In this document: positions 5,290 through 34,536 of the stretch, piece by piece
Layout of the letters: each line of letters starts with the position of its first letter
Numbering within the stretch: position 1 is the first letter of the stretch
From: Candidatus Omnitrophota bacterium
GTDB taxonomy: Bacteria > Omnitrophota > Gorgyraeia > Zapsychrales > JANLHA01
Length of the DNA: 64,000 nt
Direction of reading: 5' to 3'
NCBI GenBank assembly: GCA_022711395.1
Contig: JAKLFA010000001.1
Coordinates: 387,277-451,276, forward strand
Position numbers and translations under genes: made by a program
Notes under the pieces: model-generated
What the model was told of the DNA's origin: nothing
Database searches by the model: none
Seen by the model: the letters and a program-made list of their open reading frames with translations, nothing else

Positions 5290-5302
5290 TTTTTGGAGAT
5301 GG

Positions 5303-5331: not shown

Positions 5332-5370
5332 GATCCTTTATTATTTAGACATTAATCGAAAGGCAGTCTT

Positions 5371-6597: not shown

Positions 6598-6616
6598 TCG
6601 TGATCTGGTTTTAAAA

Positions 6617-6656
6617 ATAAAAAACCCTCGGGCCGTTTGACCCGAGGGTTTTTTGT
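6617..6656. terminator. Bidirectional rho-independent terminator.
   Basis: Perfect 8-bp GC-rich stem CCCTCGGG/CCCGAGGG with an 8-nt loop, flanked by AAAA on one side and TTTTTT on the other. It sits between the convergent glgC and etfA genes. Confidence 0.8.
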
Positions 6657-6666
6657 CGGCGAAAGA

Positions 6667-17765: not shown

Positions 17766-18029
17766 ATGGATAAAAAGAGATCAAAGACATTTCCGAAGAT
17801 CCAAAAAGATCTTAAATGCTTCCTGGAAAGTGAAGAAGGAAAGATCGTTGAAAAGGACGCCGTGAAGCTCGGCACTGCGATTGTGGCGGCGGGCGTCTTT
17901 TTGGGCAGCTTAGTGGCTCCTGTGGATGATGCCCATAGCGTGACCACGGGCCATTGTCAGCATGCCTCGCACGGAAGCCACGGAAGCCACGGAAGCCACG
18001 GAAGTCATTCGACCGGGGGCTGGTGTTAG
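17766..18029 (+). CDS. HxsA-like precursor peptide with C-terminal His-Xaa-Ser repeats.
   Basis: 87 aa. Charged N-terminal leader, hydrophobic segment LGTAIVAAGVFLGSLVAPV, then CQHASHGSHGSHGSHGSHSTGGWC. Preceded by a GAAGGAGA Shine-Dalgarno (SD) sequence and followed by four radical SAM genes in the same island. Confidence 0.7.
   Translation: MDKKRSKTFPKIQKDLKCFLESEEGKIVEKDAVKLGTAIVAAGVFLGSLVAPVDDAHSVTTGHCQHASHGSHGSHGSHGSHSTGGWC
17966..18005 (+). repeat. Perfect 9-bp tandem repeat (CACGGAAGC)x4 encoding the His-Gly-Ser repeats.
   Basis: Direct reading: cacggaagc cacggaagc cacggaagc cacggaagc cacggaagtcat. Confidence 0.9.
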
Positions 18030-21498: not shown

Positions 21499-23097
21499 TT
21501 AAGGCAGGATCTTGTAGAATGTGTAACGGGCCTTGCCTTGATCGTATGAACGGTATTCTTCCATCCTGTAACTGCTTTTCATGATCCCGCACAATTCCCC
21601 TTCAGCGGCCGACATTTGGCAGATCAGATCATCGAAAAAGAGAACGCAGTCCGTTGAACGCAAGATGTTTCCTCGCTCCGCATGGTTTTCCAGGAAAAAG
21701 CTGAGATCGACCACGTTGAGTTCAGTGGTGGACCGCAGGATCGTTGGGTGGTTGGCAATGATCAGGCAGCCGGAAGGGATGTCTTTTTCCGCCAGCTCCG
21801 GGACGCGGGTCTCCAGCCGGTGTCCGTCACCGCCGAACATCTTTGACACCGGGTCAACGTAAGGGAGGCAGGAGCTTATTAAAAGGCCCACGATGAGAAT
21901 GCGCATGGCCGTTTGCGCGGAAGGCCGTTTGATTTTTTGCGTAAAAAAGACCAAGCCCTCAGAGAGCGCCGATGCGGCAAAAATGCCCAGGACAGGGTAA
22001 AAACTGAGAACGATCCGCCCCTTTCCCAGCAGGGCGTCTTCGCCGCCCAGGGTCTTTATCCAAGAGGAGAAATAGGCGGCCCACCAAAAGACGAGCCACA
22101 GGCACAGGAATGAAAATATTTTTCGGTCCTTGATGAGGAGCAGGATAGCCCCGATAAGCGAAAGAAAAGAGAAAAGAAGCGGCTGCATGGATCCGTTAAA
22201 AATGGAGATGCCGTAATGCCGTGTGTTGTAAAACAAATTTTGGAGGCTCCAGTTGGCTCCGCGGATGCCGGTATATTCTGCGACCTCGCTGAAGTTCAGG
22301 GAGGAATAATAATGAAGGACTTGCGCGAGATTGGGCAGGCTTAAGGCAATAAACAGCAGCCAGGCGAAGACGTATGATACAGGAGGCGTTACGTTGTTTT
22401 TTTCTCCCAGGATCCAGTTTCCCGCCGGGAACAAAAGAAAAAGGATATAATTTTCCGGCCTGAATTGTGCCGCAAGGCATATCGCAGACAGGGAGAGCCA
22501 AAAAAAGGCGCGGGTCTTTTTTTGAAAATAAAGAGAACATGCCGTTACGGCCAGGCAGACCATGAAGAGTGAAACGACATTGGTTTCGGCTGTGGCCGAC
22601 CAGCGGATATGGATCGGCTGAAGGCCTATCAGCAGAGCGGCAAAGATGGCTGTTGTTTTTTTATTCGTGATGGCAAAGGTCAGAAAAAACACTGCAGCGG
22701 CTGAAAGAGCCCCGATAACGATCATCCCGTAAAGCGCGACCCAGTTGTTGGTTCCGAACACGAAAAAAAATGAGCTTAAGAGAAAAGGCCAGCCGATCGA
22801 TTTGGGATAATCCCCCGAGTGGCCTGTTTGCAGGATGTGTTTGGCTGCCTCCATATACCATGGTTCATCCAAATACATCACATGCTGGATCGGCGGGACC
22901 AAAAGGCGCAAGGCGAGAGAAAAGAGAACAATGACGGCAAGCCATCCATAAGCAGCGCCGCCGGCCTTTGACGCGAACTCCGAGAGATTTTTACGGTTCT
23001 GAGCGAGCAGAAATAAAAAGATGATCCATGAGAACAGGGCGCATGCCGGGATGGCGGCGGAAAGAGTTTCGGCTATGGAGCGTAAGAACATTGTCAT
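21499..23097 (-). CDS. Polytopic membrane protein, GT-C-fold glycosyltransferase-like (ArnT/PMT family-like).
   Basis: At least 12 TM helices and a first-loop acidic motif …HVMYLDEPWYMEAAKHI… resembling the GT-C DE/DD motif. Function is inferred from architecture. Confidence 0.45.
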   Translation of the reverse strand: MTMFLRSIAETLSAAIPACALFSWIIFLFLLAQNRKNLSEFASKAGGAAYGWLAVIVLFSLALRLLVPPIQHVMYLDEPWYMEAAKHILQTGHSGDYPKSIGWPFLLSSFFFVFGTNNWVALYGMIVIGALSAAAVFFLTFAITNKKTTAIFAALLIGLQPIHIRWSATAETNVVSLFMVCLAVTACSLYFQKKTRAFFWLSLSAICLAAQFRPENYILFLLFPAGNWILGEKNNVTPPVSYVFAWLLFIALSLPNLAQVLHYYSSLNFSEVAEYTGIRGANWSLQNLFYNTRHYGISIFNGSMQPLLFSFLSLIGAILLLIKDRKIFSFLCLWLVFWWAAYFSSWIKTLGGEDALLGKGRIVLSFYPVLGIFAASALSEGLVFFTQKIKRPSAQTAMRILIVGLLISSCLPYVDPVSKMFGGDGHRLETRVPELAEKDIPSGCLIIANHPTILRSTTELNVVDLSFFLENHAERGNILRSTDCVLFFDDLICQMSAAEGELCGIMKSSYRMEEYRSYDQGKARYTFYKILP

Positions 23098-23121: not shown

Positions 23122-24060
23122 TTAACGGAAGTAGATCCCTAATGAATCGCCTTCCCAGGTCAGGTAAGAAACGGCTCCGCCGCATTGCTTTAAATATTGC
23201 TTAGAGCTGTCCCACCACGTCAAAAGATGCTCGTCTTTAAAATTAAAGACTGGAAGTTCAGGGGCTGGCAGCGCCGTTTCCAAACGGGCCCAGATCTTGG
23301 TTGAAGAGACCGAGGCCTCCGGTGTGATGCGGTGCAGATATCCGATGTGGCGCAAAGGCATTTGTTTGACCCAGAGTAAAAATGGGGTGAGGAACGCAGA
23401 TCCGTCCCTTGAGCATTGATGGATGATCTCGTCATAGAACGCATCATGAAACGGGGCGGATGAATACGGGTAGATCTTTAAAGAACAATTGCCGCTCGGT
23501 CCGAAGTCTATTCCGATGGCGTCCAGCGTTATTCCTGAAATAAGCGTCTTTAACGCGGCCCGATTGATCCGCAGATCTTCAGCGATCGAAAGGAGAGAGT
23601 CGTCCGCTTTATGACAGGTGTTGATCAGGCTGATGTATGTTTTTAGCAAAAGGCGGCCGTCCTTATTAAGAGTGAAGCCAAACTGCATCGGCCAGTTGGT
23701 TTTTGAAATGGATTTGAAGGCTCCTTCAAGGATATGGACCTGTTGTTGCGTTAATGTTGGTTCCTGCTTTGAAAGAATATGCAGGGCGCGGTAGATCTCA
23801 AAAAAACGCTCTTTGCAGAGGGCCTGTTGGAATTCAAAAGGTCGGTCCGCGTCAAAGAAGCGCAAGTGGAGGAGCCGAAGGTCATCCGTTTTTGAGCTCA
23901 GCGAGAATTCAAAGATGCCCGATTGGGAAGAAAGCGCAGTGCCGGGTTTTTCCAGCAGCTTAAACAGGGAGCTGAAATCCAGCGGCGGGATGTTCCAGTG
24001 TTTTGTCAGGTCTGTGATGAAACGTTTTGCTTGGGAGCTGTCCATGGCTGATAAGGTCAA
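23122..24060 (-). CDS. Hypothetical protein (312 aa) in the rSAM island.
   Basis: Long ORF with coding-like composition, translationally coupled to the upstream rSAM (4-nt overlap). I recognise no family. Confidence 0.45.
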   Translation of the reverse strand: MTLSAMDSSQAKRFITDLTKHWNIPPLDFSSLFKLLEKPGTALSSQSGIFEFSLSSKTDDLRLLHLRFFDADRPFEFQQALCKERFFEIYRALHILSKQEPTLTQQQVHILEGAFKSISKTNWPMQFGFTLNKDGRLLLKTYISLINTCHKADDSLLSIAEDLRINRAALKTLISGITLDAIGIDFGPSGNCSLKIYPYSSAPFHDAFYDEIIHQCSRDGSAFLTPFLLWVKQMPLRHIGYLHRITPEASVSSTKIWARLETALPAPELPVFNFKDEHLLTWWDSSKQYLKQCGGAVSYLTWEGDSLGIYFR

Positions 24061-25208
24061 TATTGATAAAGTTGGATGAACCGCGGATCATATTTTAACG
24101 CGGACTTGATCTTTAAGAAAGTTCGGACATAGATTTTGGAGATACAGCAGAAAGCCGTGTAAAGACGCCGGCTTTGGACGGCGCGTTCGGTCTCGAATGT
24201 CTTTGTGTAGAGGAGATGTCCGATCGGGCAGAAACAATATTTATAGATGGAGCACTCTGAGCACTCGAGCCCGGATTCGGCGGTGAATTCATCGCGCAAT
24301 TTTTTCAGTAAACGCAGGCGTTTATCGTCATCGATCCCTTCGCAGGCGTTTCCGATGGCGTAGTCTTTTCGCATGGCGGGGTCAAGAGAGAAGACTTTGT
24401 CGCAGACATAGAATTGCTGATCGTTCCCGAAAGAGAGCTTTCCGCAGCGTTCCATTTTATCGACCTCGATCCCGTTGACGAGCGTGTCAAGAAATGCGTT
24501 CTTAAAGACCGGGGCGTTACGTTGAAACAGCTCGATATAATAGCGTTCAAAATCTTCAAAGGATCTTTCCATGGACCGCAGGTCGTTCGTGTTCCAGTGG
24601 GCGTATTGGTCAGGATAGAATTCGATCGAATAAAAATCCTTGGCGCTTAAAAAGCGGATATTGTCCAGAAGACGGCTCACGTTTTGTGGGGTGAACACCA
24701 TCGCGGCGGAAAGTCTGAAGGTGGTGCCGAGGCGCTCCATGTTCCGCATGATCGCATCAAAGCTGGACCGGTCAGGGTTGTTGCGGAATGGGCGGTTCTC
24801 ATCATGGGTCAGTTTGTCGCCATCGATGCTGATCTTGATGATGGTGTCTTCTTTGGCGATCGAGCGGAGGATGTCCTTATCCAGGAGGGTGCCGTTGCTG
24901 ATGATCGCCACATCTAAGCGGGTCTTGTTTTCCTGGGCTTTTTTTCGGGCGTAGTCGCAGAGCGCTCTTAAAAGTCCGATCTCAAGGGTCGGCTCGCTGC
25001 CGTTAAAACTTAAGGTCTTGTGTTTTCCGGGATAGCTGAAGAGCAGGTCGATCGATCGTTTCAAGGATTCTTCATCATCCGGAGAATGCTTGAAATCCGT
25101 CTTTTTTAGGAAGCAGTATTTACAGTCGAGGTTGCATTGGCCGGTGAAAAAGAAATTCAGCGTGGACGGCGAGTCGTGGGGGATTATGGGGTTATTCGGA
25201 TCTCTCAT
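24057..25208 (-). CDS. Radical SAM/SPASM-domain protein (anaerobic sulfatase-maturase-like); HxsB/HxsC candidate.
   Basis: Start revised to ATG 25208 (MRDPNNPII…). The ORF-track N-terminal 74 aa are low-complexity and would overlap the upstream gene by 238 nt. CNLDCKYC lies near the N-terminus. The C-terminus has Cys clusters (CEGIDDDKRL…CSECSIYKYCFCPIGH…). Confidence 0.7.
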   Translation of the reverse strand: MRDPNNPIIPHDSPSTLNFFFTGQCNLDCKYCFLKKTDFKHSPDDEESLKRSIDLLFSYPGKHKTLSFNGSEPTLEIGLLRALCDYARKKAQENKTRLDVAIISNGTLLDKDILRSIAKEDTIIKISIDGDKLTHDENRPFRNNPDRSSFDAIMRNMERLGTTFRLSAAMVFTPQNVSRLLDNIRFLSAKDFYSIEFYPDQYAHWNTNDLRSMERSFEDFERYYIELFQRNAPVFKNAFLDTLVNGIEVDKMERCGKLSFGNDQQFYVCDKVFSLDPAMRKDYAIGNACEGIDDDKRLRLLKKLRDEFTAESGLECSECSIYKYCFCPIGHLLYTKTFETERAVQSRRLYTAFCCISKIYVRTFLKIKSALKYDPRFIQLYQY

Positions 25209-26691
25209 AGAGATGAGCGGCCATCCGCCGGAACCAGTCGTCGAAGACGGCCCGTATTTTTTTGTTCTTGAGCTTTTTGAACAGATGATCAAAGATCGCC
25301 ATTTTGATCTTGCAGCTGTCTGTCGCCGGGATCTGGGGGAAGAGATTGCCGTATTCCACGAAATTGACCAGCGGGCAGACGCCGCAGTATGGTTTGTAAG
25401 CACAGTCTGAGCAGCTGGCCTGGTTATCAAGGCAAGATGAGATGCATAGCGTCTTCGTGACTTCGTTGTCGATCAGGTCGCTAAACCGGCTGGTATTGAC
25501 ATGTCCGATCTGAAAATTCCCGTAACCCATACGGCTGGACATCCGCCCTTCATCGCAGGAATAGATCGCGCCGTCGTAGTTGAAGGCCATTTGGCCGATG
25601 CTGGCGCCGCAAGGATTGCGCATATCATAAAAACAGGGGTCATCGTTCTTGAGGATCTTGGACAAAGCAAAAAAAGCGTTACGTTCCAGTATGAACGTGC
25701 CCTTCGAATTCAACTCCAGGATATAATCCAGCGCGCGCTTGTAAAAGGTGATGAACTTTTCGGATTTATAGCTGATGAGTTTGTGTGTTTTGCGCTCCAG
25801 GCCGAACGGATTGAGCGGGCGCAGGAAAATGTTATTGAATCCCAGGGAAATATATTCATCAATGATCTCTTTGGCGTAGGGAAGCGAGAATTTTGTGATG
25901 GTCGTGATGGCGTTGAGCTGGTCAATGAATTGAGAAGGGGAACCTTTACGCTTTTGCCGGATGGCCGCATTGATCTTTTTGATCTGCTTGACAACGATGG
26001 CATGGCTTTTACCGGAACCGAGAAATGGCCGGTTTTTGTCGTGCACTTCAGCTGGTCCATCCAGCGAGGTGACGATGCTCACGTTATGATCGAGCAGGAA
26101 CTTGAGCTTTTCATCATCCATCAGGATGAGGTTGGAGATCACCGTGAGCTTAAGCCGTTTTTTATGGATCTCGGCCATGTTTTGAGAATATCCGACCATA
26201 TATTGCAGGACCGGCCAATTCAATAACGGCTCTCCTCCCTGGAATTCGATATGGACATTTTGTGAAGGCCCTTGAAAAATAAGGTCCAGCGCCTTTTTGG
26301 CGGTCGCCTCATCCATGTCATAACCATGCGTGTCGCAGGTTTCCGGAGTGGATTGGCAGTAAAGGCAGCGTTGGTTGCAACGCAAGGTCAGGATGATCAG
26401 GAAAAGCGAGGGGCCCCGGTAAGCGGAGTTGTGAAGGCGGAGGTACTTTGAGGCCTGCTCAGCCAGTTTGTTTCGGTCGGTCCGGTCGATGTCAATGAAC
26501 TGTTTGTCCCGTAGCTCTTGATAGAGCGGTTCATCTTTTGTAATGGAATTTTCAAGCAAACGCTTGAAATCCACCTGGTCCAGGCAGGCCCAATCGCCGC
26601 AGTCATTGGTAACGATGTAATCGTTGTTGACCCTGCGGAAACGGATATTGCCCAGGTGAGAACAGGTGGCTGCTTTTTTAGGGTTGCGCAT
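25192..26691 (-). CDS. Radical SAM/SPASM-domain protein with a ~110-aa N-terminal extension; HxsB/HxsC candidate.
   Basis: Start revised to ATG 26691 (MRNPKK…); the upstream ORF-track residues are low-complexity. CNQRCLYC lies ~110 aa in from the start. The C-terminus has SPASM-like Cys clusters (…CISSCLDNQASCSDCAYKPYCGVCP…). Confidence 0.65.
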   Translation of the reverse strand: MRNPKKAATCSHLGNIRFRRVNNDYIVTNDCGDWACLDQVDFKRLLENSITKDEPLYQELRDKQFIDIDRTDRNKLAEQASKYLRLHNSAYRGPSLFLIILTLRCNQRCLYCQSTPETCDTHGYDMDEATAKKALDLIFQGPSQNVHIEFQGGEPLLNWPVLQYMVGYSQNMAEIHKKRLKLTVISNLILMDDEKLKFLLDHNVSIVTSLDGPAEVHDKNRPFLGSGKSHAIVVKQIKKINAAIRQKRKGSPSQFIDQLNAITTITKFSLPYAKEIIDEYISLGFNNIFLRPLNPFGLERKTHKLISYKSEKFITFYKRALDYILELNSKGTFILERNAFFALSKILKNDDPCFYDMRNPCGASIGQMAFNYDGAIYSCDEGRMSSRMGYGNFQIGHVNTSRFSDLIDNEVTKTLCISSCLDNQASCSDCAYKPYCGVCPLVNFVEYGNLFPQIPATDSCKIKMAIFDHLFKKLKNKKIRAVFDDWFRRMAAHLYERSE

Positions 26692-26896
26692 GGGCGATCT
26701 CGAGATAGAGGACATAGTTTTTGAACTCACTGATAAAGATTTCTGCGTCGTCCAATTGTCCGTCGTCATCAACGGAGACATGGAAATACTGCCCCTTTGA
26801 GCGGATCTCAAACTTGCCGAAATCCTTGAATTGTTCAAAGGCGGCTTCAATGTGCGCTTGTGAGTATAAATTTTTATGAAAAGGGATTGTCAGCAT
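26678..26896 (-). CDS. Small hypothetical protein (72 aa) immediately upstream of the SPASM rSAM pair; possible accessory protein or second substrate.
   Basis: Tight spacing: 2 nt after the upstream gene and a 14-nt overlap with the downstream rSAM. I have no family assignment. Confidence 0.4.
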   Translation of the reverse strand: MLTIPFHKNLYSQAHIEAAFEQFKDFGKFEIRSKGQYFHVSVDDDGQLDDAEIFISEFKNYVLYLEIAHAQP

Positions 26897-26897
26897 T

Positions 26898-27401
26898 TTA
26901 CTGCAAAGGTCTTTTTATGTTCAACGGATCTTCTTCGTAGGTTCCCGCAGAAAAATCTTCCTGCTCCAGTTCTTTCTTGAGAGCTTCGATCTCCTGTTCG
27001 ATCTTTTTGATGTCATCCTCATCACTGTTGGCGCGTGAAGGTTCTTGCGGCCCTTTGGATGAGGAGGGAAGGGCGGCGTTAATGGCCCCTCCAACGATAT
27101 ATTCAATGATCGTTTTATTTTTTTGGGCGATCTCTTTGCGGACGGATGCATTGAGAAGTTCATTCAAGAATTCATTGCGGAGCGCTTCGAGCTGCTTTTT
27201 GGTTGATCGTGTCTTTGTTTTCAACAAGACGGTGAACTCATCTTTTTTCGGGGCGTCGATATAAACATAGACTTTGTCTACGATGATGTAGCAAGCCTTT
27301 AAAAGGACCTCTTTGGGATAGATTTTAGGATGAACGGAGAAGACAATCTCTGAATCCTTCGTGTTAATCCGTGTTTTGCTGGATTTTTCGAAATTATTCA
27401 T
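26898..27401 (-). CDS. Hypothetical protein (167 aa) with an acidic coiled-coil C-terminus; HxsD-like candidate.
   Basis: First gene of the minus-strand rSAM operon. Contains …FLNELLNASVRKE…, loosely reminiscent of the LLNDYxLRE motif I recall for HxsD. This similarity is weak. Confidence 0.4.
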   Translation of the reverse strand: MNNFEKSSKTRINTKDSEIVFSVHPKIYPKEVLLKACYIIVDKVYVYIDAPKKDEFTVLLKTKTRSTKKQLEALRNEFLNELLNASVRKEIAQKNKTIIEYIVGGAINAALPSSSKGPQEPSRANSDEDDIKKIEQEIEALKKELEQEDFSAGTYEEDPLNIKRPLQ

Positions 27402-27538: not shown

Positions 27539-28303
27539 TTAAGGACCGGCATGGATGTTGGGAAGGATGCGCAGGAGTTCTTCTTTGGGCATGTCATATT
27601 TCAAGAGGGCGTCACTTCGTAATCCGGCCAGAGCAGTGTAGTAGGCGTCATAACCGAGACTGAACGCGGTGTAGGCCAAGAGGCTGGAATAGTCATAATA
27701 TGTGAAATAGATCAGGATCTTTTTGTTCTTATCGAATTTCCGCAAGGCTTTTTCCATTTCCTGGGGGTTCATATAAAATTTTTTTGCTGAAGGGGAATCG
27801 TCATTCAAAAGGCGGATAGGATAAAAATCGTCGATCCCCAGGACCTGGAACGATCCGTAGGTTTGCGGGTCGATCGTGTTCAGGTCAACGTAACGCTGCG
27901 CCTTGAATTCCTGATAGGGTAGGGAAACGCCCGGGGAGGCGATCAGCTCGCCGCAGTAATCGACATCGCAGGATGCTTCATGGCAGCATTTGTAGGATAG
28001 ATACGTTTTGAAACGGATATCATAATATTTCAAACTGATGAAAGCTGCCAGGAAGAGCGTGAAGATCGCAGCCCAGAAACGGAGGCGCTGCTGGGAGGCT
28101 TTGTTTTTTATGAGCTTCAGGAAGGAGATGGTCCCGGCGCAGAAGACGACCAGGATATAGATCAGTCCCATGCCCATGGCTGACGCGATCACCTGGATGG
28201 TATGAGGGGAAATAAAGGCAAAAGCGTCCGTTGAAAGACAGAGAATGATACAGAAGGACAAAAGGGTTTTAAAGGATCTTGATCTCGACATGTTTGGCGT
28301 CAC
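27539..28303 (-). CDS. Membrane protein with 3 N-terminal TM helices and a Cys-containing C-terminal domain.
   Basis: Hydrophobic N-terminus followed by …CCHEASCDVDYC…. Family unknown. Confidence 0.4.
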   Translation of the reverse strand: MTPNMSRSRSFKTLLSFCIILCLSTDAFAFISPHTIQVIASAMGMGLIYILVVFCAGTISFLKLIKNKASQQRLRFWAAIFTLFLAAFISLKYYDIRFKTYLSYKCCHEASCDVDYCGELIASPGVSLPYQEFKAQRYVDLNTIDPQTYGSFQVLGIDDFYPIRLLNDDSPSAKKFYMNPQEMEKALRKFDKNKKILIYFTYYDYSSLLAYTAFSLGYDAYYTALAGLRSDALLKYDMPKEELLRILPNIHAGP

Positions 28304-28592
28304 CTGTTATGGCCAGTTTTCCACGCGGGGGGACCGGCCCCAGCGTTTGGTTCAAACGTATGATCGTTTTGCCGTATTCCAGCGCGATCAACGCCAGATG
28401 CGCCAGGGGAGAGCCCTGTTCGGTAATGATCAGTTTGACCTTGTGCAAGATGATCGAAAAATCCGGGTCCAATGAGCGGACGATCACGCAGGGGCTGCCG
28501 GCGAATTCTGAAATATTTCCCATTGTCTGATAGTCGATCATGTCCTCAGCGGTGAAATGACCGGTGATCGTTATTCCTTTTAATGTCATCAT
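28269..28592 (-). CDS. Stand-alone PEP-utilizing-enzyme mobile (phosphohistidine swivel) domain protein.
   Basis: …ITEQGSPLAHLALIALEYGKTII… matches the PEP-utilizer swivel-domain consensus around the catalytic His. Only ~107 aa, with no flanking ATP-grasp or PEP-binding domains. Confidence 0.55.
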   Translation of the reverse strand: MMTLKGITITGHFTAEDMIDYQTMGNISEFAGSPCVIVRSLDPDFSIILHKVKLIITEQGSPLAHLALIALEYGKTIIRLNQTLGPVPPRGKLAITGDAKHVEIKIL

Positions 28593-29310
28593 AGCTCATC
28601 TCAAATATATTTTGAATGTTTTTTTCTGCGGCTAGCTCAAGAAAAGAAAAACGCAGGTCGCGGATGACCAGGAGCGAAAGATATTTCAGCTCTTCCCGCA
28701 ATGACGAATAGGCCGCGAACAGGTTCTTGCTTTTAGAGTCGATAAAATCATAAAGAGAGGTCGCTTTCTGCGTTTTGAAGTCACTGAGGAACCTGGCGAT
28801 CTCAAGGAGCTCCTGCTCCGGGTATTCGCTGAAACGTCTGGCGGAAAGTTCATAGGCGTTGAAGGCGTAATGGCCGAAGCTTTCATTGAATGATTGACGG
28901 GTGATCTCCCCGTGGAACAGGCGCTTGAACGCAAGAAGTCTCTCATCCTCTTTCGTGATGATGGGGTTGGTTTTATGTTTTTCGGCAAAGAAGGCGTATA
29001 TCAAGAACGTGTTGTTGAGCGCGATAAAATCGAACAGGACGGTCAGCCGCTCCCAGGCGCGGTCGATCCTTTGGATGGTGTCCCTTTCAGCGGGGAGAGC
29101 GCGGTCATATCCGCGGGTGAAGGCGTGGATCCTCAGATACTCCTCCTGATACCGGAGCCGCAGCTTGACCTGGTTAAAGAAACCCCGGGGCGGGAAGAGG
29201 GAATCGTATTTCTGCTTTTGGGATATGGCCAGCTCCACAACGCTCCGGGAAAGAGGGCTGGGATCTTTAATAAAATCTTCGAAGATGTTGTTTTGCTCGT
29301 ATTGTCCCAT
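28546..29310 (-). CDS. Hypothetical protein. The start is uncertain (ATG 29310, or 29472 per the ORF track).
   Basis: Helical, charged protein. The ATG at 29310 avoids a 90-nt overlap with the upstream gene. Its 3' end overlaps the swivel-domain ORF by 47 nt in another frame. Confidence 0.35.
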   Translation of the reverse strand: MGQYEQNNIFEDFIKDPSPLSRSVVELAISQKQKYDSLFPPRGFFNQVKLRLRYQEEYLRIHAFTRGYDRALPAERDTIQRIDRAWERLTVLFDFIALNNTFLIYAFFAEKHKTNPIITKEDERLLAFKRLFHGEITRQSFNESFGHYAFNAYELSARRFSEYPEQELLEIARFLSDFKTQKATSLYDFIDSKSKNLFAAYSSLREELKYLSLLVIRDLRFSFLELAAEKNIQNIFEMSYDDIKRNNDHRSFHR

Positions 29311-29381
29311 GCGTATTAGAAGAAGGCTTTTTATCCCGTATTTTATGCCGGCCGTGGAGGGCTTGATCTTTTTTTTGGTCT

Positions 29382-30329
29382 TTAAGGAGAAGGGGTGATA
29401 TTGGTTCTCGGTGGAGCGTTGCCCTTCTGCTGTTTGACGAACTCCCTTGCCTGATAGACCAGTTCCCGGCATTTGTTGAAGTCGACCTCATGAAAATCCC
29501 TGATCTTGTAACAGTAGGACACGGGGTCATCCGGGCCATTGGGGTCAAGGGTCCCAACGACAGCCAAGGGGATCGCGTATGCCTTATAGCACTGATTTTC
29601 AGTGTAATGGCGGATGATCTTTTTTTCAACACTGCTTGGATCGACCAAAGTTTCGCACTGGAGGCGCAGCATGTCATCCCGGATGCTGATCTTGCTGCAC
29701 TCATTGATATCTTTTGTTTTGAACGCCCGGTAAAGCGTGAAGCCTTCCACGCAGTATTTTCGCCCGTCAGACCCTTCTTCAAAATTGTCCAGGCAGGCAT
29801 TGATCCCGGCCGGTGTCGTGACGGCCAGGCAGATCGAATAGGAAACCCGTTTATCTTCCTCGGTGCTGTCATCGAAGATTTGGTTTTTCAGGAACGAATC
29901 GCAGAGAGAAGGGTCCTTGTAAAAGATCACGTGGGCCATGCGGACGCTTTTTGACCTTAAGTTCAGTTTTTGGGCGTCCTCAAGGAATTTTTGGAGGTCT
30001 TTTTCCGTCTTAAGGTGGAACATGATCGATTGCAGACAAAGACGCTTAATATCATCACTCCATGTTTTGTTGTCACAGGTGCCGGTCTTGGCTTGATGGA
30101 GGATCACTTGATATTCCTGGTCCTGGTAGGAGTTGCCGAATTTGGGCAGTTGGCCGCGCGTGGCCAAAGATGTGCACTCATCAATATAGCTTTGGGATTT
30201 TTTCTGAACGTCAGAGAACTTCTGCCCTTTGAAATTATCCAGGGTCATGTCCAGGACGGTCTGAGCATGGATCGTTTGGGAAACAAGGGTAAGAAGCGCG
30301 CTGATCAAAAAGATTCGGAGGGTCTTCAT
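29382..30329 (-). CDS. Secreted Cys-containing protein (signal peptide MKTLRIFLISALLTLVSQTIHAQ), function unknown.
   Basis: Clear Sec signal peptide and about 12 Cys. It is divergent from the tandem rSAM operon. Confidence 0.5.
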   Translation of the reverse strand: MKTLRIFLISALLTLVSQTIHAQTVLDMTLDNFKGQKFSDVQKKSQSYIDECTSLATRGQLPKFGNSYQDQEYQVILHQAKTGTCDNKTWSDDIKRLCLQSIMFHLKTEKDLQKFLEDAQKLNLRSKSVRMAHVIFYKDPSLCDSFLKNQIFDDSTEEDKRVSYSICLAVTTPAGINACLDNFEEGSDGRKYCVEGFTLYRAFKTKDINECSKISIRDDMLRLQCETLVDPSSVEKKIIRHYTENQCYKAYAIPLAVVGTLDPNGPDDPVSYCYKIRDFHEVDFNKCRELVYQAREFVKQQKGNAPPRTNITPSP

Positions 30330-30576
30330 TCTTTTTCCGATCGGTTAAGTGGTAGTAGACATGACAGTATCACATCCAATGCATAGGTATTATATGTGTG
30401 TCAAAATTTGAGGTCAAGACTTAAAGTGACAGATCCTGATCCAAAGTATCTGGGGCATGCTTTAGATCAAGAAAAACCATTGCAAGTCCATTCTAAAGGC
30501 ATTATATTTACTATAAGTCTGAATAATGAAAAAGGCCCTCTTTAAGTCGAGAAAAGAGTTTTTTCCCTAAAAGCCG

Positions 30577-31473
30577 ATGAAAAAAGCGGATATCAAAACC
30601 GGGTTTTTATGCAATTCCAACTGCCGTTTCTGCGTTCAGGGTGACCTCAAAAAGGCCCTTGGCAATAAATCGGCTGCTGAGCTTAAAGAGATCATCAAGG
30701 AGGCCAGCCGCGACTGCGGGATCCTGGTCTTTACCGGAGGGGAAGTGTGCGTGCGGGAGGATATTCTTGAGCTTGTCGCGTATGCCCGGCAATTCCCTTT
30801 TCACACAATACAGATCCAATCCAACGGCCGTGTGTTTATGGACGAGCGTTTTTGCGCGGACGTGATCTCCGCCGGGGCCAATGAGTTCGCCCTGGCGCTT
30901 CACGGCCATACGCCGGAACTTCATGATTATCTGACCCAAAGCGCCGGCTTTAAACAGACGATCCGCGGCATTCGGAATTTAAAAAAACTCGGCCAGCGTG
31001 TTCTTGTGAACACGGTGGTGACCAAACCAAATTACCGCCACCTGCCGGATATTACAAAATTGCTGATCAGCCTGGATGTTGACCAGATGCAGCTGGCCTT
31101 TGTGCACGCGCTGGGTTCGGCCGCATTGAATTTTGAAAGCATGGTCCCGCGACTGACGCTGGTGATGCCCTATGTCATCCGAAGTATCGTGATCGCCCGT
31201 CATTTTGACAGGCAGATCGTCACGGAGGCTATTCCGTATTGTTTTCTTAAAGGTTATGAAGGGCATGTTTCCGAGCAGGTCATGCCTATCATGAAGATCT
31301 TTGAACATGATCATGTTGTGGCCAACTTCACGGAATCCAGGTTGACCGAGGGCAAGCTGAAAGGCCCGGATTGTCCGCAATGCGCTTATTACGAGGCATG
31401 TGAAGGATCGTGGAAAGAATATCCCCAAGCCTTCGGATGGGATGAATTCGTGCCGGTGAGCAGGGAACGATGA
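30577..31473 (+). CDS. Radical SAM protein (small, ~300 aa), first of three tandem paralogs.
   Basis: CNSNCRFC at residues 12–19, GGE motif (FTGGEV), C-terminal CPQCAYYEACEG. Confidence 0.75.
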   Translation: MKKADIKTGFLCNSNCRFCVQGDLKKALGNKSAAELKEIIKEASRDCGILVFTGGEVCVREDILELVAYARQFPFHTIQIQSNGRVFMDERFCADVISAGANEFALALHGHTPELHDYLTQSAGFKQTIRGIRNLKKLGQRVLVNTVVTKPNYRHLPDITKLLISLDVDQMQLAFVHALGSAALNFESMVPRLTLVMPYVIRSIVIARHFDRQIVTEAIPYCFLKGYEGHVSEQVMPIMKIFEHDHVVANFTESRLTEGKLKGPDCPQCAYYEACEGSWKEYPQAFGWDEFVPVSRER

Positions 31474-32606
31474 GCGCAAATAAGGTCCAAATTAAAAATA
31501 AGGCGGCTGAGGAGAAACGTCATTGGGTGCGTTTGACGAATACCTGCAACCAGCGGTGCGTGTTCTGCCACGATCGTCGGAATCAGCAGGGAGGGGTCGT
31601 GCCGTTTGAGGAGATTGTCCGCGATCTTCAAAAAGGGCGCAGGCGGGGTTGCCGGCGGGTGGTGCTGTCAGGAGGTGAACCGACGCTGCATCCTGAATTG
31701 GCCAGGGTCATTTCCGAGGCCAGGCGCCTGGGGTATTCACATGTGCAGATGGTGAGCAATGGGCGGATGCTCTTTTATAAGGATTTTGTAAAGGCCTTGA
31801 AGACGGCTGGTTTGGATGAAGTGACCCTTTCATTGCATAGTCATTTGGAGGGGCCGTTCGAGCAGATCACGCGAGCAAAGGGCAGTTTCCGTCAGGCGAT
31901 GAAGGGGCTGCTTGCCGTTCTTGAGAACGATTTTATTGTGAGCGTGGATATTGTCATTAATAAGCTGAATTACAAGAGCCTCGCACGGACCATGAAATTC
32001 TTTATCGGGTTAGGGGTCTATGAGTTCGATCTTTTGCATTTGATCCCGTTCGGGGATGCCTGGCAGAACAGGAGGGACGTTTATTACCCTATCCAAAAAG
32101 CGAAAAAATATCTGGATGAGGCTTTCGAACTTTCCAGGAAAGAACAGGTCTATCTTTGGACCAACCGTCTGCCGGCGATGTACCTCGAGGGTTATGAAGA
32201 CTTGATCCAGAGTCCGCGTAAACTTTTTGATGAAGTGGCGGGGATGGAGCAGGAACTTAAGAACGTTTTGGAGACGGGGCGCCCGATGATCTGTTCGGGA
32301 GAACGATGCGGATATTGTTTTATGGAGGCCTTTTGTCAGGATCTGATGCGATTACGAAAGGATAAGTTTCTTTCTGCCAGACAGCCGCCGCCATGTTTAA
32401 AAAAGAAACAGCAGTTGAAGCCGGCCGTTTACCGCTTTCGAAAGGGCATGAGCCTTTACCGGTTCCTGGATTTTTTTATTGAACATCGGTATTATGTGAA
32501 AAGCCTGCGGTGCGGGCAGTGTCGCTTCAACCGTCAGTGCGACGGAGCGCACATCGAGGAAATACGGACAAAGGGTTTTAAGGCCCTGGTCCCGTTTAAA
32601 AAATAA
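31470..32606 (+). CDS. Radical SAM protein with a SPASM/twitch-like C-terminus, second tandem paralog.
   Basis: CNQRCVFC; LSGGEPTL; C-terminal CSGERCGYCFMEAFC and CGQCRFNRQCDG. Its start overlaps the previous stop (ATGA). Confidence 0.75.
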   Translation: MSANKVQIKNKAAEEKRHWVRLTNTCNQRCVFCHDRRNQQGGVVPFEEIVRDLQKGRRRGCRRVVLSGGEPTLHPELARVISEARRLGYSHVQMVSNGRMLFYKDFVKALKTAGLDEVTLSLHSHLEGPFEQITRAKGSFRQAMKGLLAVLENDFIVSVDIVINKLNYKSLARTMKFFIGLGVYEFDLLHLIPFGDAWQNRRDVYYPIQKAKKYLDEAFELSRKEQVYLWTNRLPAMYLEGYEDLIQSPRKLFDEVAGMEQELKNVLETGRPMICSGERCGYCFMEAFCQDLMRLRKDKFLSARQPPPCLKKKQQLKPAVYRFRKGMSLYRFLDFFIEHRYYVKSLRCGQCRFNRQCDGAHIEEIRTKGFKALVPFKK

Positions 32607-32611
32607 GAGCA

Positions 32612-33547
32612 ATGGCGAGCCTAGGCTATATACAAGTCACCCGCGAGTGCAATCAGAATTGTATGATCTGTTCTAATCCTCCGACGGGTTATTATTTGCC
32701 GCTTGACCAGGCCAAGAAGGAAGCGGACTGGCTGGTCGAAAAGCGGTGCGCAGGTGTTATTTTAAGCGGCGGGGAGCCTACGTTGTATCCGCAACTTCCG
32801 GAATTGATCCGATATTGCAAAGCCCGGGGGCTGTTTCCACGGATCATCACCAACGGGCAGAAGACCTGTGATGAACAGTATCTTCGCCTTTTAAAAGAAT
32901 CCGGTCTGCAGCATTTGCATCTGTCGATCTATTCTTGCCGGCCCGCGGTTCAGGCGAAGCTCACCGGCAACGCGCAGGCCTTTGCCAACATTGAAAAAAG
33001 CCTTATGAATATCGTGCGGCTTGGCGGAATGACCGTGGATGTCAATATCGTGATCAATAAATATAATGCCGGTCATTTGTTGGAGACGGTTTCGTGGATG
33101 ATTGAACATTATGGTTTTGTTCAACATTGTGTTTTCAACAATCTGGATCCGTGCATGAACCGCGTGGCGGAGCATCCGGATGTGGTCCCGCGGCTCAATG
33201 ATTTTGAGCTGGAGCTTCACCGGGCGTTGCAGTTCTTGGCTGCTCATGGAAAAACATTCCGTGTTGAGCGTGTCCCGCTGTGCTATTTGACGGATTTCGA
33301 GCACATTTCCACGGAAACGCGCAAGATCGTCCTGAATGAACAGAGAGCGATCTATTTTTTGGATGACCGGGGAGAGGTGGAGCAGGAAGATTGGTATTAT
33401 AAAAAAGGGGCTGCTTGTAGGCCCTGCAGGCTGAATAAGATCTGCGCCGGGCTGTATGCCCTGGGAAAAGGATATGATGAAGGGGAGTTGTATCCGGTTT
33501 TTATTGATCCTGCCGGGATCATTGAGAAGATCAAAGGAATTCCATGA
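32612..33547 (+). CDS. Radical SAM protein, third tandem paralog.
   Basis: CNQNCMIC; LSGGEPTL; C-terminal CRPCRLNKICAG. Confidence 0.75.
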   Translation: MASLGYIQVTRECNQNCMICSNPPTGYYLPLDQAKKEADWLVEKRCAGVILSGGEPTLYPQLPELIRYCKARGLFPRIITNGQKTCDEQYLRLLKESGLQHLHLSIYSCRPAVQAKLTGNAQAFANIEKSLMNIVRLGGMTVDVNIVINKYNAGHLLETVSWMIEHYGFVQHCVFNNLDPCMNRVAEHPDVVPRLNDFELELHRALQFLAAHGKTFRVERVPLCYLTDFEHISTETRKIVLNEQRAIYFLDDRGEVEQEDWYYKKGAACRPCRLNKICAGLYALGKGYDEGELYPVFIDPAGIIEKIKGIP

Positions 33548-34521
33548 TATTCAATAACCTTTTGCTTGCTATGCTTTTTGGGTTCAGTTTGTATATTGCA
33601 GATCAGGATATGCGGACAAAACGCATCTCGAACCGGGTGATCGCAAGGGCGCTTTTGGCGGGGGTGTTGGTGTATGGAGCGGGCCTTATAGCTGGCGCGA
33701 TGAGCGTGACGTATGTTCTTCAAGCAGGGCTGAACACGCTTACGGCTTTTGCCGCTGGATTCCTGATCTGGAAACTGAACTTATGGCCTGCCGGGGACGC
33801 GAAATTTTTCATGGCCTGTTCCTTTTTGATCCCTTTACAGTATTATTCAAAGCAGTTTTTCTATTTTCCGGCGTTTAGTTTTTTGATGAACATGTTCTTG
33901 ATCTATTTGGTTTTTATGGGGTATAAATTTGCGATCTGGGCAGGTCAAAACATCGTTGCATTTTTCAAAAGCCGGGTGTTTTTAAGAAAGGGTTTTTTGC
34001 GATTTCTGAAGATGAGATGCAAACGATCCCTGGCCGTTCTCGGAACTGCGGGATTTTGGAAGAAACTGGCTTACCGGGTCATGTTCAAGGCTGTTTTTCA
34101 GGTGTCGCTGATCGCCGTGGCGTTCGTGTTTTTTACAAAGCGGAGTTTTCAGTTCCAGGCGTTCTCAGTGTTTTTTTTGTTCTTTCTGGGAGTGCGGATG
34201 GTATTCAGTGCTTTTGTTAAGACCTCAGGACGCCGGATGATCAAGGCGGAAACCCTTCAACCCGGCATGAATCTCTCGATAGATACGATCAAGCGGGTGA
34301 AATGCGATCGTGAATTCTTCAAGGGGATCGGGGCCTTGAGGGCTGATGGGCTTACTGTTCAGCAGGCAGAGGCCCTTAAAGAATATTTGTTGCGGAAAAA
34401 TTTTCTTGATATCTATATTTATGACACGATCGCGTTCTCACCATTCATCGCCTTGGGGGCTGCGGCAACGGTCCTGGCGAACGGCTCTGTGCTGGATTTG
34501 GGCCCGCAGATCATGATGTAA
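33544..34521 (+). CDS. A24-family prepilin peptidase-like membrane aspartyl protease (TadV/CpaA type) with a C-terminal extension.
   Basis: DQDMRTKRISNRV (CpaA-like D…R.I[PS]N motif) and WPAGDAKFF (GxGD second catalytic Asp), both embedded in TM helices. It overlaps the last rSAM stop (ATGA). Confidence 0.55.
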   Translation: MIFNNLLLAMLFGFSLYIADQDMRTKRISNRVIARALLAGVLVYGAGLIAGAMSVTYVLQAGLNTLTAFAAGFLIWKLNLWPAGDAKFFMACSFLIPLQYYSKQFFYFPAFSFLMNMFLIYLVFMGYKFAIWAGQNIVAFFKSRVFLRKGFLRFLKMRCKRSLAVLGTAGFWKKLAYRVMFKAVFQVSLIAVAFVFFTKRSFQFQAFSVFFLFFLGVRMVFSAFVKTSGRRMIKAETLQPGMNLSIDTIKRVKCDREFFKGIGALRADGLTVQQAEALKEYLLRKNFLDIYIYDTIAFSPFIALGAAATVLANGSVLDLGPQIMM

Positions 34522-34536
34522 GGTTCTTATTCCGAA

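Follow-up and report, generated by a model that had tools for sequence, protein, structure and literature searches.

A FlaK-fold A24 protease encoded with HxsC-like radical SAM proteins in an enlarged His-Xaa-Ser island of an Omnitrophota bacterium, a candidate leader peptidase

The window analysed here, a 64,000-nucleotide stretch from a Candidatus Omnitrophota bacterium, holds at 30577–34521 a co-directional unit of three radical SAM (rSAM) genes and one family A24 protease gene, with open reading frames exactly as the original prediction had them. On the plus strand follow one another rSAM-1 (30577..31473), a small HxsC4-like protein of 298 aa with CNSNCRFC at residues 12–19; rSAM-2 (31470..32606), HxsC-like, 378 aa, with CNQRCVFC at 26–33; rSAM-3 (32612..33547), HxsC-like, 311 aa, with CNQNCMIC at 13–20; and a FlaK-fold, GxGD-type membrane aspartyl protease (33544..34521, 325 aa), which NCBI annotates as a prepilin peptidase. 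The start/stop overlaps ascribed to the unit were found, as ATGA, at rSAM-1/rSAM-2 and rSAM-3/protease, and a 5-nt gap lies at rSAM-2/rSAM-3.

The three rSAM proteins are ancient paralogs with 23–26% mutual identity, and all match Pfam PF04055 (72.7, 91.2 and 75.6 bits for rSAM-1, rSAM-2 and rSAM-3). HxsC or HxsC4 is among the top NCBIfam matches of each and the single best for rSAM-1 (HxsC4 NF038332, 150.9 bits, cut-off 500; next HxsC TIGR03977, 100.5 bits, cut-off 268) and rSAM-3 (HxsC, 86.9 bits, cut-off 268); rSAM-2 scores highest with archaeal MoaA (TIGR02668, 100.3 bits, cut-off 325), with HxsC at 96.4 and HxsC4 at 93.9 bits, both below cut-off. The C-terminal Cys clusters expected in rSAM-2 and rSAM-3 are present, and rSAM-1 has one too: the spacing C-x2-C-x5-C recurs at C266/269/275 in rSAM-1, at C280/283/289 and C348/351/357 in rSAM-2, and at C269/272/278 in rSAM-3. 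None of the three proteins matches the Pfam SPASM model. Among related loci (L numbers), orthologs of rSAM-1 are 73% identical in L002, 59–62% in L004/L006 and 43–48% in the Elusimicrobiota loci L015/L016; for rSAM-2 the values are 63–70% (L001/L002), 50% (L006) and 44–45% (L015/L016/L019), and for rSAM-3 they are 68–72% (L001/L002), 59% (L006) and approximately 50% (L016/L019).

The protein encoded at 33544–34521 scores 33.5 bits against Pfam PF01478 (Peptidase_A24; gathering score 26.5). In a family alignment of 39 homologs (21–51% identity), both originally proposed Asp motifs proved real, with D22 (DQDMRTKRISN) and D85 (WPAGDAKFF) invariant; the Lys that follows D85 and a PF-x-P-[FW] helix are likewise invariant or almost invariant. 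The Pfam match and the retention of both catalytic Asp mark the protein as a genuine A24 enzyme at the sequence level, and it is probably catalytically active; its second motif reads P-A-G-D, compared with the canonical G-x-G-D. In the structural model, about 200 extra residues form four helices, which on our reading mostly span the membrane, and a soluble domain, an alpha/beta unit at approximately residues 230–293 that precedes the last helix (PFSPFIALGA). A helix at approximately residues 148–167 in the model is, as we read its sequence, basic and amphipathic-looking.

A TadV/CpaA-like label, given to this protein earlier, is too specific: in structure it matches only archaeal FlaK strongly, the 200 or so extra residues set it apart, and it lies outside any tad locus, profile searches having detected no tad or pil assembly genes in the window. 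The closest known proteases are the archaeal preflagellin/prepilin peptidases FlaK, PibD and EppA (family A24B; FlaK structure 3S0X), which share with it a pair of Asp where helices 1 and 4 end on the cytoplasmic side, the absence of an N-terminal methyltransferase domain and a soluble domain inserted ahead of the last helix; the archaeal A24 C-terminal domain PF06819 is matched by 7 of the 39 family members. Identity to FlaK is only 13%, and no PDB chain is matched at the sequence level. Unlike the FlaK group, the window protease has P-A-G-D for G-x-G-D and four more helices, its gene belongs to clusters for rSAM-based peptide maturation instead of accompanying archaellum or pilus genes, and the substrate proposed for it is a short repeat peptide in place of a filament subunit. 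TadV and CpaA, the Flp prepilin peptidases, likewise have an A24 core without a methyltransferase domain, but they belong to tad loci, and the window protease is about twice their size.

No precursor gene adjoins the four genes, as had been noted; across the window the leader motif of the relevant family occurs only in the open reading frame at 17766..18029 (plus strand). This frame encodes an 87-aa HxsA3/A4-like precursor peptide (HxsA3 NF038309, 50.5 bits, cut-off 65; HxsA4, 35.3 bits; NCBIfam) behind a ribosome-binding site (GGAG) 6 nt upstream. An HxS peptide had been placed 13–16 kb upstream; it does lie upstream, at 12.5 kb from rSAM-1 and 15.5 kb from the protease gene. The gene is unannotated, since the exact sequence was not found in public protein sets, although 152 homologs exist, mostly in Omnitrophota and Elusimicrobia. 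The peptide consists, in order, of the leader MDKKRSKTFPKIQKDLKCFLESEEG, the segment KIVEKDAVKLG, hydrophobic residues 36–52, AHS, and a core of six consecutive H-x-S units (H-A-S, then five H-G-S) ending in -T-G-G-W-C.

Throughout the precursor family, the conserved leader K-K-x-[IL]-K-x-F-L-x-S-E-E-G-K, near-invariant in its F-L-x-S-E-E-G-K part, precedes a short hydrophobic segment; among 118 sequences the motif residues number F 117, L 117, S 101, E 117, E 117, G 109 (A 9) and K 93, and in 112 of the 118 a second G/A abuts the 14–17-residue hydrophobic stretch. By sequence, this leader resembles the end of an Flp prepilin leader: the candidate context F-L-x-S-E-E-G/ is like the F-L-x-D-E-x-G/ that ends the Flp leaders cut by TadV/CpaA, and the F-L-x-x-E-x-G spacing equals the start of the Pfam Flp_Fap model, counted from the F of FLKDESG/ATAIEY in Flp sequences. 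HxsA-family peptides differ from Flp in that the hydrophobic tract does not directly follow the Gly and no xxxIEY comes after it, and they have no Pfam Flp_Fap match. The precursor also fails the strict definition of a class III signal peptide: the hydrophobic tract begins only after eleven hydrophilic residues beyond the invariant Gly, it has 14–17 residues compared with about 21, and Glu5 is missing. In most of the family an A-x-A-like site follows the short Sec-type hydrophobic region, and one and the same leader is joined to different cores, namely HxS repeats or, in P0113, P0126 and L097, Cys-rich tails.

Between the precursor gene and the four-gene unit, several further genes have counterparts in related clusters. 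On the plus strand are a HemN-like radical SAM protein (18200..19627, 475 aa; NCBIfam hemN 140.9 bits, below cut-off), with two 39%-identical copies after the protease gene in L002, and an HxsC-like rSAM domain fused to a class I/II PLP aminotransferase (19649..21481, 610 aa; HxsC 90.9 bits plus aminotransferase families in NCBIfam), whose 55%-identical L002 ortholog lies between rSAM-1 paralogs and rSAM-2. The minus strand carries a PMT_2 (GT-C type) polytopic membrane glycosyltransferase-like protein (21499..23097; PF13231, 30.7 bits), also present in L010 and L076 and heading the L002 operon as a 49%-identical ortholog; a conserved 312-aa protein of unknown function (23122..24060) without a family match, with homologs within the clusters of L006, L007, L028, L033, L039, L040, L065 and L074; and a PapB-like radical SAM/SPASM peptide maturase (24057..25430; NCBIfam PapB NF047865, 154.6 bits, below cut-off), which probably starts inside the listed frame and whose 42–44%-identical ortholog directly follows HxsB in L004–L007. 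Also on the minus strand lie the His-Xaa-Ser radical SAM/SPASM maturase HxsB (25192..26850; TIGR03978, 494.3 bits, cut-off 370), HxsD (26898..27401; TIGR03976, 56.7 bits, cut-off 50; so named by NCBI) and, from translating the gap between them, a 72-aa protein (26678..26896) that is possibly HxsD-like and shares short motifs, noted by eye and unscored, with 74–75-aa genes at the same position in L004/L006. Three accessory genes (27539..29472, minus strand) encode a 308-aa protein of unknown function, a 107-aa PEP-utiliser mobile-domain protein (PF00391, 28.8 bits) and a 254-aa membrane protein; all have BLAST matches in L093, where the candidate frames keep the same order and multiple rSAM-1-like genes and an A24-like gene are also present. 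Last comes a secreted Cys-rich protein (29382..30329, minus strand, 315 aa) with a Sec-type signal peptide and no family match, a 24%-identical homolog of which directly follows the HxsA gene in L006/L007.

The arrangement is not due to chance: the gene order rSAM-2–rSAM-3–protease repeats in distant genomes. In L002, orthologs of the PMT_2-like protein, rSAM-1, the rSAM-aminotransferase fusion, rSAM-2, rSAM-3, the protease and the HemN-like protein form one co-directional operon; in L006/L007, one operon comprises HxsD, a 74-aa gene, HxsB, the PapB-like gene, HxsA and, further on, rSAM-1, YcaO, rSAM-2, rSAM-3 and the protease. Hxs-type genes stand beside the protease in 11 of 12 genome loci (Omnitrophota, Elusimicrobiota, Iainarchaeia), and HxsC-like, HxsB or HxsD neighbours were found in 36 of the 38 metagenome loci that span 8 kb or more. 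The gene directly upstream is an HxsC-like rSAM or HxsB in 30 of 47 metagenome loci, most commonly an rSAM-3 ortholog (15/47). Had homologous loci shown the rSAM genes without a peptidase neighbour, the association would have been in doubt, but the peptidase stays beside them across phyla. A leader-plus-HxS precursor lies within 10 kb of the protease gene in 18 related loci, on the same strand in 16, with an overlap between the pair in L022 and a spacing of 71 nt in L012. By our tally by eye, about 17 loci extend some 10 kb to either side, and the precursor is seen in only 6 of them, although clusters can outrun the examined flank, as the 15.5 kb in the window illustrates. Many rSAM-1-like genes and an A24 gene, with no HxsB, HxsD or HxsA within reach, occur in L085, L091, L094 and L098, and type IV pilus genes (N_methyl pilins, PilM, PilO, secretin) come after the protease gene in L022.

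Because related loci hold precursor, HxsB, HxsD, rSAMs and protease in single operons, the region from 17.7 to 34.5 kb is best read, on gene content, as one enlarged His-Xaa-Ser (Hxs) island with the four genes as its distal arm. The arrangement had been called unlike any characterised system; with its three HxsC/HxsC4-like rSAMs, it is instead an enlarged variant of HxsABCD. Canonical HXS (HxsD-HxsB-HxsC-HxsA) is an antiphage system of Pseudomonadota (Haft's TIGR03976–03979; Li et al., Nat Commun 2026, PMC13128918), in which more than 99.8% of systems have the four genes only, and HxsA undergoes an N-terminal cleavage that depends on HxsB/C/D, with no protease named (PMC13128918). The island has in common with it HxsB and HxsD, here true family members, a precursor that bears His-x-Ser repeats in tandem and an export signal at its N-terminus, and small HxsC-type rSAMs with a C-terminal Cys cluster. 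In contrast to the canonical system, it has seven rSAM genes, not two; the three rSAMs fall well short of the HxsC cut-off; the precursor has 87 aa, a conserved F-L-x-S-E-E-G-K leader and no peptidoglycan-binding domain (no Pfam match, and too short for one); and the genes spread over 17 kb on both strands, adding a FlaK-fold protease, a PMT_2 membrane protein, a PLP aminotransferase fusion and a secreted Cys-rich protein. The canonical precursor is rSAM-modified, N-terminally cleaved and then active outside the cytoplasm, and by analogy the island may have an antiphage role. Kept with Hxs systems in three phyla, the protease is a good candidate for the enzyme that trims the leader of HxS peptides.

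We slightly favour, at little better than even odds, the reading that within one enlarged Hxs island the A24 protease takes the leader off the HxS peptide once the rSAMs have modified it. The original proposal of a leader protease for an rSAM-modified substrate is borne out in its A24 assignment with both Asp and in the conserved rSAM link, and the cleavage itself is a proposed further step. The HxS peptide, one of its suggested substrates, is now the best candidate because precursor, rSAMs and protease share one operon in related loci. The 87-aa precursor would be made in the cytoplasm, its leader bound by HxsD/HxsB, and its His-x-Ser repeats modified by the seven rSAMs (HxsB, the PapB-like and HemN-like proteins, the HxsC-like/aminotransferase fusion and the three HxsC-like paralogs). 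The hydrophobic segment would then enter the membrane while the leader stays inside the cell, where the protease, its two Asp lying at the points at which helices 1 and 4 reach the cytoplasm, could cut after the near-invariant Gly (G25/K26) or, alternatively, at G36/T37, where the hydrophobic segment begins; prepilin peptidases likewise work from the cytoplasmic side and cleave behind a Gly of this kind (PMC4471445). Export of the modified core would follow, with release probably by signal peptidase I at the A-x-A-like AHS/V. Similarly, in RiPP systems with dedicated leader peptidases, such as those with PCAT transporters, whose C39 domain cuts after a double-glycine leader, a conserved leader ends in Gly and a membrane-associated protease is encoded in the maturation cluster; there the protease is a cytoplasmic cysteine protease, whereas the island has an intramembrane aspartyl protease and no ABC transporter, and export would go via the Sec-type hydrophobic segment. 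The points counted against this leader-protease reading are the P-A-G-D motif, the L022 pilus genes, the precursor-less loci, the class III signal peptide misfit and the missing Flp_Fap match of HxsA, and also that signal peptidase I alone could mature the peptide, given the A-x-A-like site after its hydrophobic segment.

We consider it improbable that, after signal peptidase I frees the HxS core, the protease cuts the leader-plus-signal fragment left in the membrane, either for clearance or for release of the leader into the cytoplasm. Signal peptide peptidase and family A24 belong to one clan of GxGD aspartyl proteases, which speaks for such a role, as do the A-x-A-like site of most family members and the unusually long, highly conserved n-region that would stay in the membrane; on the other side, the Flp-like F-L-x-x-E-x-G context suggests a prepilin-type site, and A24 enzymes are known to cut before, not inside, the hydrophobic helix, at the cytoplasmic face of the membrane (PMC4471445).

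Equally unlikely, in our estimate, is that the protease serves as the cell's ordinary prepilin/Flp peptidase, either adjoining the rSAM genes without shared function or acting on a Cys-rich 858-aa protein (15136..17712, plus strand) as its real or second substrate. The N-terminus of that protein, read from the sequence as MNRKA/QQIVEYLLLIA, is Flp-like and fits G/XXXXEY save for Ala at −1, and a similar one (pairwise BLASTP E 7e-4) occurs in L004/L005, on a 316-aa Cys-rich protein whose gene is divergent from HxsD; the NCBI label and the L022 pilus genes point the same way. Yet the window lacks tad/pil assembly genes, the protease gene overlaps the rSAM-3 stop codon and keeps its Hxs-type neighbours in three phyla, and the 1.1 Mb of related loci contain no more than 3 distinct ORFs with a G/XXXXEY-type motif. 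The 858-aa protein itself has no Pfam Flp match and, save for the L004/L005 similarity, no BLAST match in related loci at E ≤ 1e-6 or 1e-8; once suggested as a plausible substrate, it has a comparable protein flanking the cluster in only one other lineage and is possibly a second substrate outside the system core. Least likely, and distinctly so, is a non-proteolytic role as a membrane scaffold, anchor or export component tethering the cytoplasmic rSAMs and precursor: the modelled 200 or so residues past the A24 core include the basic helix and a soluble domain that could bind partners, and P-A-G-D departs from G-x-G-D, but the (near-)invariance of both Asp, the following Lys and the PF-x-P-[FW] helix across the 39 homologs is the pattern expected of a working active site.

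The window encodes three small radical SAM (rSAM) enzymes in a row on the forward strand, followed by a membrane protease: rSAM1 (30577–31473, 298 aa, CNSNCRFC), rSAM2 (31470–32606, 378 aa, CNQRCVFC), rSAM3 (32612–33547, 311 aa, CNQNCMIC), and a Peptidase_A24 protein (33544–34521, 325 aa). The ORF listing and Pfam (Radical_SAM matches of 73–91 bits) agree with the original prediction on these four genes and their cysteine motifs, and two of its details can be refined. The start/stop overlaps that it described take the form of ATGA at the rSAM1/rSAM2 and rSAM3/protease junctions, but rSAM2 and rSAM3 are separated by a 5-nt gap. C-terminal Cys clusters are indeed found in rSAM2 and rSAM3 but are not limited to them: C-x2-C-x5-C, with Cys upstream, stands at the end of all three enzymes, rSAM1 included, and rSAM2 carries two such clusters. 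None of the three matches Pfam SPASM (PF13186) at E ≤ 0.01. The NCBI annotation of the source metagenome-assembled genome (MAG; Candidatus Omnitrophota) lists each rSAM as "radical SAM protein" and the protease as "prepilin peptidase". Promoter-like sites (6 found, 4.7 expected) and terminator-like sites (6 found, 5.9 expected) occur at chance level across 30200–34700. The absence of a convincing precursor gene adjoining the four genes was also borne out, as the sole ORF in the interval 30330–30576 (49 aa, 30396–30545) lacks the leader motif described below; no precursor is expected there, because in L002, a related locus from another Omnitrophota MAG, the ortholog of rSAM1 sits 8 nt after the preceding gene.

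The three rSAMs are old paralogs with 23–26% mutual identity, and separate orthologs of every one of them occur in other phyla. HxsC4 (NF038332) and HxsC (TIGR03977), from the His-Xaa-Ser (HxS) peptide systems, are among the top NCBIfam matches of all three and supply the single best match of rSAM1 and of rSAM3, while archaeal MoaA marginally outscores them for rSAM2 (100.3 bits). The scores lie far below the cut-offs, both for HxsC4 (151, 94, and 60 bits for rSAM1 to rSAM3 vs. 500) and for HxsC (86.9–100.5 bits vs. 267.9), and the enzymes are HxsC-like paralogs rather than HxsC equivalogs.

The protease matches PF01478 over residues 10–119 with 33.5 bits (gathering score, 26.5). The catalytic Asp pair of the original prediction (D22 and D85) is invariant in an alignment of 39 protease sequences of 21–51% identity, as are K87, W76, W81, P97, F298, and G305; the second Asp motif reads W-P-A-G-D-A-K, with Pro in place of the first Gly of G-x-G-D. 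Within this family, 35 of 39 members match PF01478 and 7 of 39 the archaeal A24 C-terminal domain PF06819. The protein has a FlaK-type polytopic membrane fold, and its relation to FlaK is visible at the fold level only, a search of PDB sequences with the family profile having returned chance matches alone (E ~0.6, ankyrin proteins). Helix 1 is followed by a basic loop (DMRTKRISNR), which by the positive-inside rule would place both Asp residues at the cytoplasmic face. Assignment to the bifunctional PilD type was rejected, as the Cys-rich N-terminal domain PF06750, which is linked to N-methyltransferase activity, is absent and PF01478 is the sole domain in the 325 aa. The earlier description as TadV/CpaA-like did not hold: the scan of window ORFs of at least 150 aa (all but several at ~40–63 kb) detected no tad or pil gene, and among the best 80 metagenome loci, HxsB, HxsD, or HxsC-like genes are the neighbors in 36 of the 38 that span at least 8 kb. 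The protease is a FlaK-like A24 enzyme that bears a large C-terminal elaboration, and it differs from a typical TadV/CpaA peptidase. A word-indexed search gave only four homologs. In a full profile search, the number of cluster representatives was 73 at E ≤ 1e-30, 773 at E ≤ 1e-10, and 1454 at E ≤ 1e-3, with many full-length proteins (310–400 aa). No NCBIfam model matches the protease, and PADLOC reported generic rSAM likeness to pVip only, with nothing for the protease, HxsD, or HxsA.

The four genes form the distal arm of one island (17.7–34.5 kb), whose components are spread over 17 kb and both strands among many extra genes. On the reverse strand lie HxsB, an rSAM/SPASM maturase (25192–26850; TIGR03978, 494.3 bits vs. 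a cut-off of 370), HxsD (26898–27401; TIGR03976, 56.7 bits vs. a cut-off of 50), a 72-aa gene between them (26678–26896), and a PapB-like rSAM/SPASM maturase (24057–25430), together with a trio, between HxsD and a secreted 315-aa protein, comprising an unknown protein of 308 aa, a 107-aa PEP-utiliser mobile-domain protein, and a 254-aa membrane protein (27539–29472). A HemN-like rSAM (18200–19627) and a PLP aminotransferase fusion that carries the fourth HxsC-like rSAM domain (19649–21481) complete the rSAM complement. A PMT_2 (GT-C) membrane glycosyltransferase-like protein (21499–23097, reverse strand; 49% identity to its L002 counterpart) is kept in the cluster, so that extracytoplasmic glycosylation of an exported Ser-rich peptide is possible.

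These pieces are taken as one island because related loci join them. In L001, from a close relative, rSAM2, rSAM3, and the protease are followed, as in the window, by GGDEF, CvpA-like (Colicin_V family), DnaG, and RpoD genes. L002 is a single co-directional operon that begins with the PapB-like, PMT, and unknown genes and rSAM1 (73% identity), continues with two more HxsC4-like paralogs (223–225 bits), the rSAM-aminotransferase (55%), rSAM2 (63%), and rSAM3 (68%), and ends with the protease (44%) and two HemN-like genes. The single operon of L006/L007 runs from HxsD through a 74-aa gene, HxsB, the PapB-like gene, HxsA, a gene homologous to that of the secreted 315-aa protein in the window, further rSAMs, rSAM1, YcaO, rSAM2, and rSAM3 to the protease. 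L093, a distant cluster with about seven rSAM1-like (HxsC4-like) BLAST matches and the protease, has BLAST matches at 4937–7017 (+) to the window's trio, with candidate ORFs in the same order. A scan of one genome per species yielded 12 loci, from Omnitrophota, Elusimicrobiota, and Candidatus Iainarchaeum, and in 11 of the 12 the protease gene has HxsB, HxsD, or HxsC-like neighbors. In 30 of 47 metagenome loci, the protease is directly preceded by HxsB or an HxsC-like rSAM (rSAM3-like in 15). L020 has the order HxsD, 67-aa gene, HxsB, unknown, HxsA4 (NCBI name), rSAM, rSAM, and an A24-like gene whose product scores 239 bits against the protease family profile. The predicted pairing of rSAM enzymes with a peptidase thus stands, the peptidase recurring in homologous loci and its Asp pair being retained. 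An apparent rSAM-protease fusion in L013 (2121–4193, 690 aa) was not used as evidence, as two N bases lie exactly at the junction and it may be an assembly artefact.

At the proximal end of the island, an HxsA3/4-like precursor gene (17766–18029, +) with a clear ribosome-binding site encodes the 87-aa peptide MDKKRSKTFPKIQKDLKCFLESEEGKIVEKDAVKLGTAIVAAGVFLGSLVAPVDDAHSVTTGHCQHASHGSHGSHGSHGSHSTGGWC, which carries six H-x-S units in one unbroken run. Its NCBIfam matches all fall under their cut-offs (HxsA3, 50.5 bits vs. 65; HxsA4, 35.3 vs. 55; HxsA, 22.6 vs. 121.7), and since no public protein set contains its exact sequence, the source genome seems to lack an annotation for the gene. The precursor has 152 homologs; those with a recorded organism belong to Omnitrophota and Elusimicrobia, and NCBI has named some of the homologs HxsA4. 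When 118 of them were aligned on their common motif, a leader consensus K-K-x-[IL]-K-x-F-L-x-S-E-E-G-K-I emerged, in which F, L, and both E residues are each present in 117 sequences, S in 101, G in 109 (A in 9), and the following K in 93; the part of the leader that precedes the invariant Gly is 22 aa long in the median. After this Gly come about 10–11 hydrophilic residues ending in K-[LI]-[GA] (G/A in 112 of 118), then a hydrophobic stretch of 14–17 residues and an A-x-A-like site; the H-x-S repeats come next, and the peptides close with a short GGWC, GQW, or GSW tail. The F-L-x-S-E-E-G-K leader also occurs occasionally on Cys-rich cores with few or no H-x-S repeats (precursor homologs P0113 and P0126, and L097 1630–2016), examples being DCDCSSCDCDC... 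and HSSC repeats, which suggests one modular leader family serving several core types.

A gene for this leader plus H-x-S repeats lies within 10 kb of the protease gene in 18 related loci, on the same strand in 16; the two genes are 71 nt apart in L012 and overlap in L022. At the level of comparative genomics, the inferred link between protease and precursor is strong. Of the two nearest plausible substrates originally named, the HxS peptide is favored by this proximity, while the other, an 858-aa Cys-rich protein with a Flp-like N-terminus (15136–17712, +), has no homolog in the other clusters, and a search with its first 140 residues returned nothing.

F-L-x-S-E-E-G, which is nearly invariant in the HxsA3/4 leader, is spaced like the end of the leader of Flp, the pilin of tad loci (F-L-K-D-E-S-G, followed by ATAIEY). 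Three sequences that we take to be Flp pilins all match Pfam Flp_Fap, whose model begins at that Phe in two of the three. Neither the HxsA peptides nor the N-terminus of the 858-aa protein matches Flp_Fap, even at E ≤ 10, so the resemblance of the HxsA leader to Flp is one of motif only. A class III signal peptide consists of a hydrophilic leader of 6–26 aa ending in Gly and directly followed by ~21 hydrophobic residues, usually with Glu5 (PMC4471445). The HxsA precursor has 11 hydrophilic residues after the Gly, a tract of 14–17 residues, and no Glu5; membership in the pilin class was accordingly rejected and the likeness kept as a working analogy.

We tentatively propose, at slightly below even odds, that the FlaK-fold A24 protease is the dedicated leader peptidase of an rSAM-modified, exported HxS peptide. 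It would then be the first A24 enzyme with a RiPP-type substrate, would define a widespread multi-rSAM relative of the HXS system (Omnitrophota, Elusimicrobiota, and DPANN archaea), and would point to a kind of enzyme missing from the canonical HXS model. In the course of events that we consider the most likely, the rSAM enzymes would modify the repeat region in the cytoplasm, the hydrophobic segment would insert into the membrane, the protease would take off the leader after G25 or, less likely, after G36, which directly abuts the hydrophobic stretch, and the core would be exported and freed at the A-x-A-like site; this proposal draws on the Flp-like spacing in the leader. In 2026, the canonical HXS antiphage system was shown to prevent phage DNA from entering, through an effector that requires N-terminal cleavage; its HxsA undergoes such a cleavage in dependence on HxsB, HxsC, and HxsD and bears a +8 Da modification on the last repeat, with no protease named (PMC13128918). 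[quoted passage not shown] The Hxs system, its curated NCBIfam variants (HxsA3, HxsA4, and HxsC4), and the characterized canonical form were already known; our literature searches found no papers on HxsA3, HxsA4, or HxsC4, nor any in which a prepilin-type peptidase is connected to peptide maturation by rSAM enzymes or to a precursor peptide. As the variant encodes the protease beside the maturases, which enzyme cleaves HxsA, where, and when become approachable by co-expression. If the proposal is true, prepilin-type peptidases act on small modified peptides as well as on filament subunits. The analysis also draws attention to the seven-rSAM clusters of uncultured phyla as a large family that lacks annotation, its genes bearing no more than the names "radical SAM protein" and "prepilin peptidase" in public records.

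An unlikely alternative is that the protease is an ordinary peptidase of pilins and that its substrate may be the 858-aa protein, whose N-terminus (MNRKA, followed by QQIVEYLLLIA) is Flp-like. A comparable 316-aa Cys-rich protein is encoded divergently from HxsD in L004/L005, and in L022 (10001–20255) the HxsA-like gene that overlaps the A24-like start is followed by three N_methyl pilin-like genes, PilM, PilO, and a secretin. However, related loci totaling 1.1 Mb contain just three distinct ORFs with the Flp-like N-terminal motif, and no pilus assembly genes were found in the window. It is comparably improbable that the protease has a signal-peptide-peptidase-like role after cleavage by signal peptidase I, and that it is a non-catalytic scaffold is less probable still, given that the active-site residues are invariant. 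The leader-peptidase reading remains the one that we prefer.

Large Cys-rich secreted proteins with Flp-like N-termini flank the Hxs cluster in two Omnitrophota lineages; RKAQxxxEYxLI and then C-[ND]-C-T-G are common to the 858-aa protein and to L004 5387–6337 (−), the N-termini aligning pairwise at E 7e-4. Such a protein could be a partner specific to these lineages or a second substrate of the protease. In L085, L091, L094, and L098 (also L037, L041, L053, and L080), the protease is accompanied by 3–7 rSAM1-like (HxsC4-like) BLAST matches, with no HxsB, HxsD, or HxsA within reach, so that these loci are either parts of a system whose genes are split up in the genome, as they are in the window, or a distinct cluster type. 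A conserved soluble protein of 65–66 aa (…YRSQEHYEVLG…) is encoded two genes upstream of the A24-like gene at L093 7960–8157 and L041 8801–9001, clusters that have no HxS precursor within 10 kb. Across window positions 1–64000, all 2-kb bins show positive GC skew and cumulative skew climbs steadily, so the whole window appears to lie on one replichore. An 875-aa protein encoded at 53808–56435 (+) has a dockerin type I domain and a TIG domain in addition to a TIM-barrel region of glycoside hydrolase family 2.
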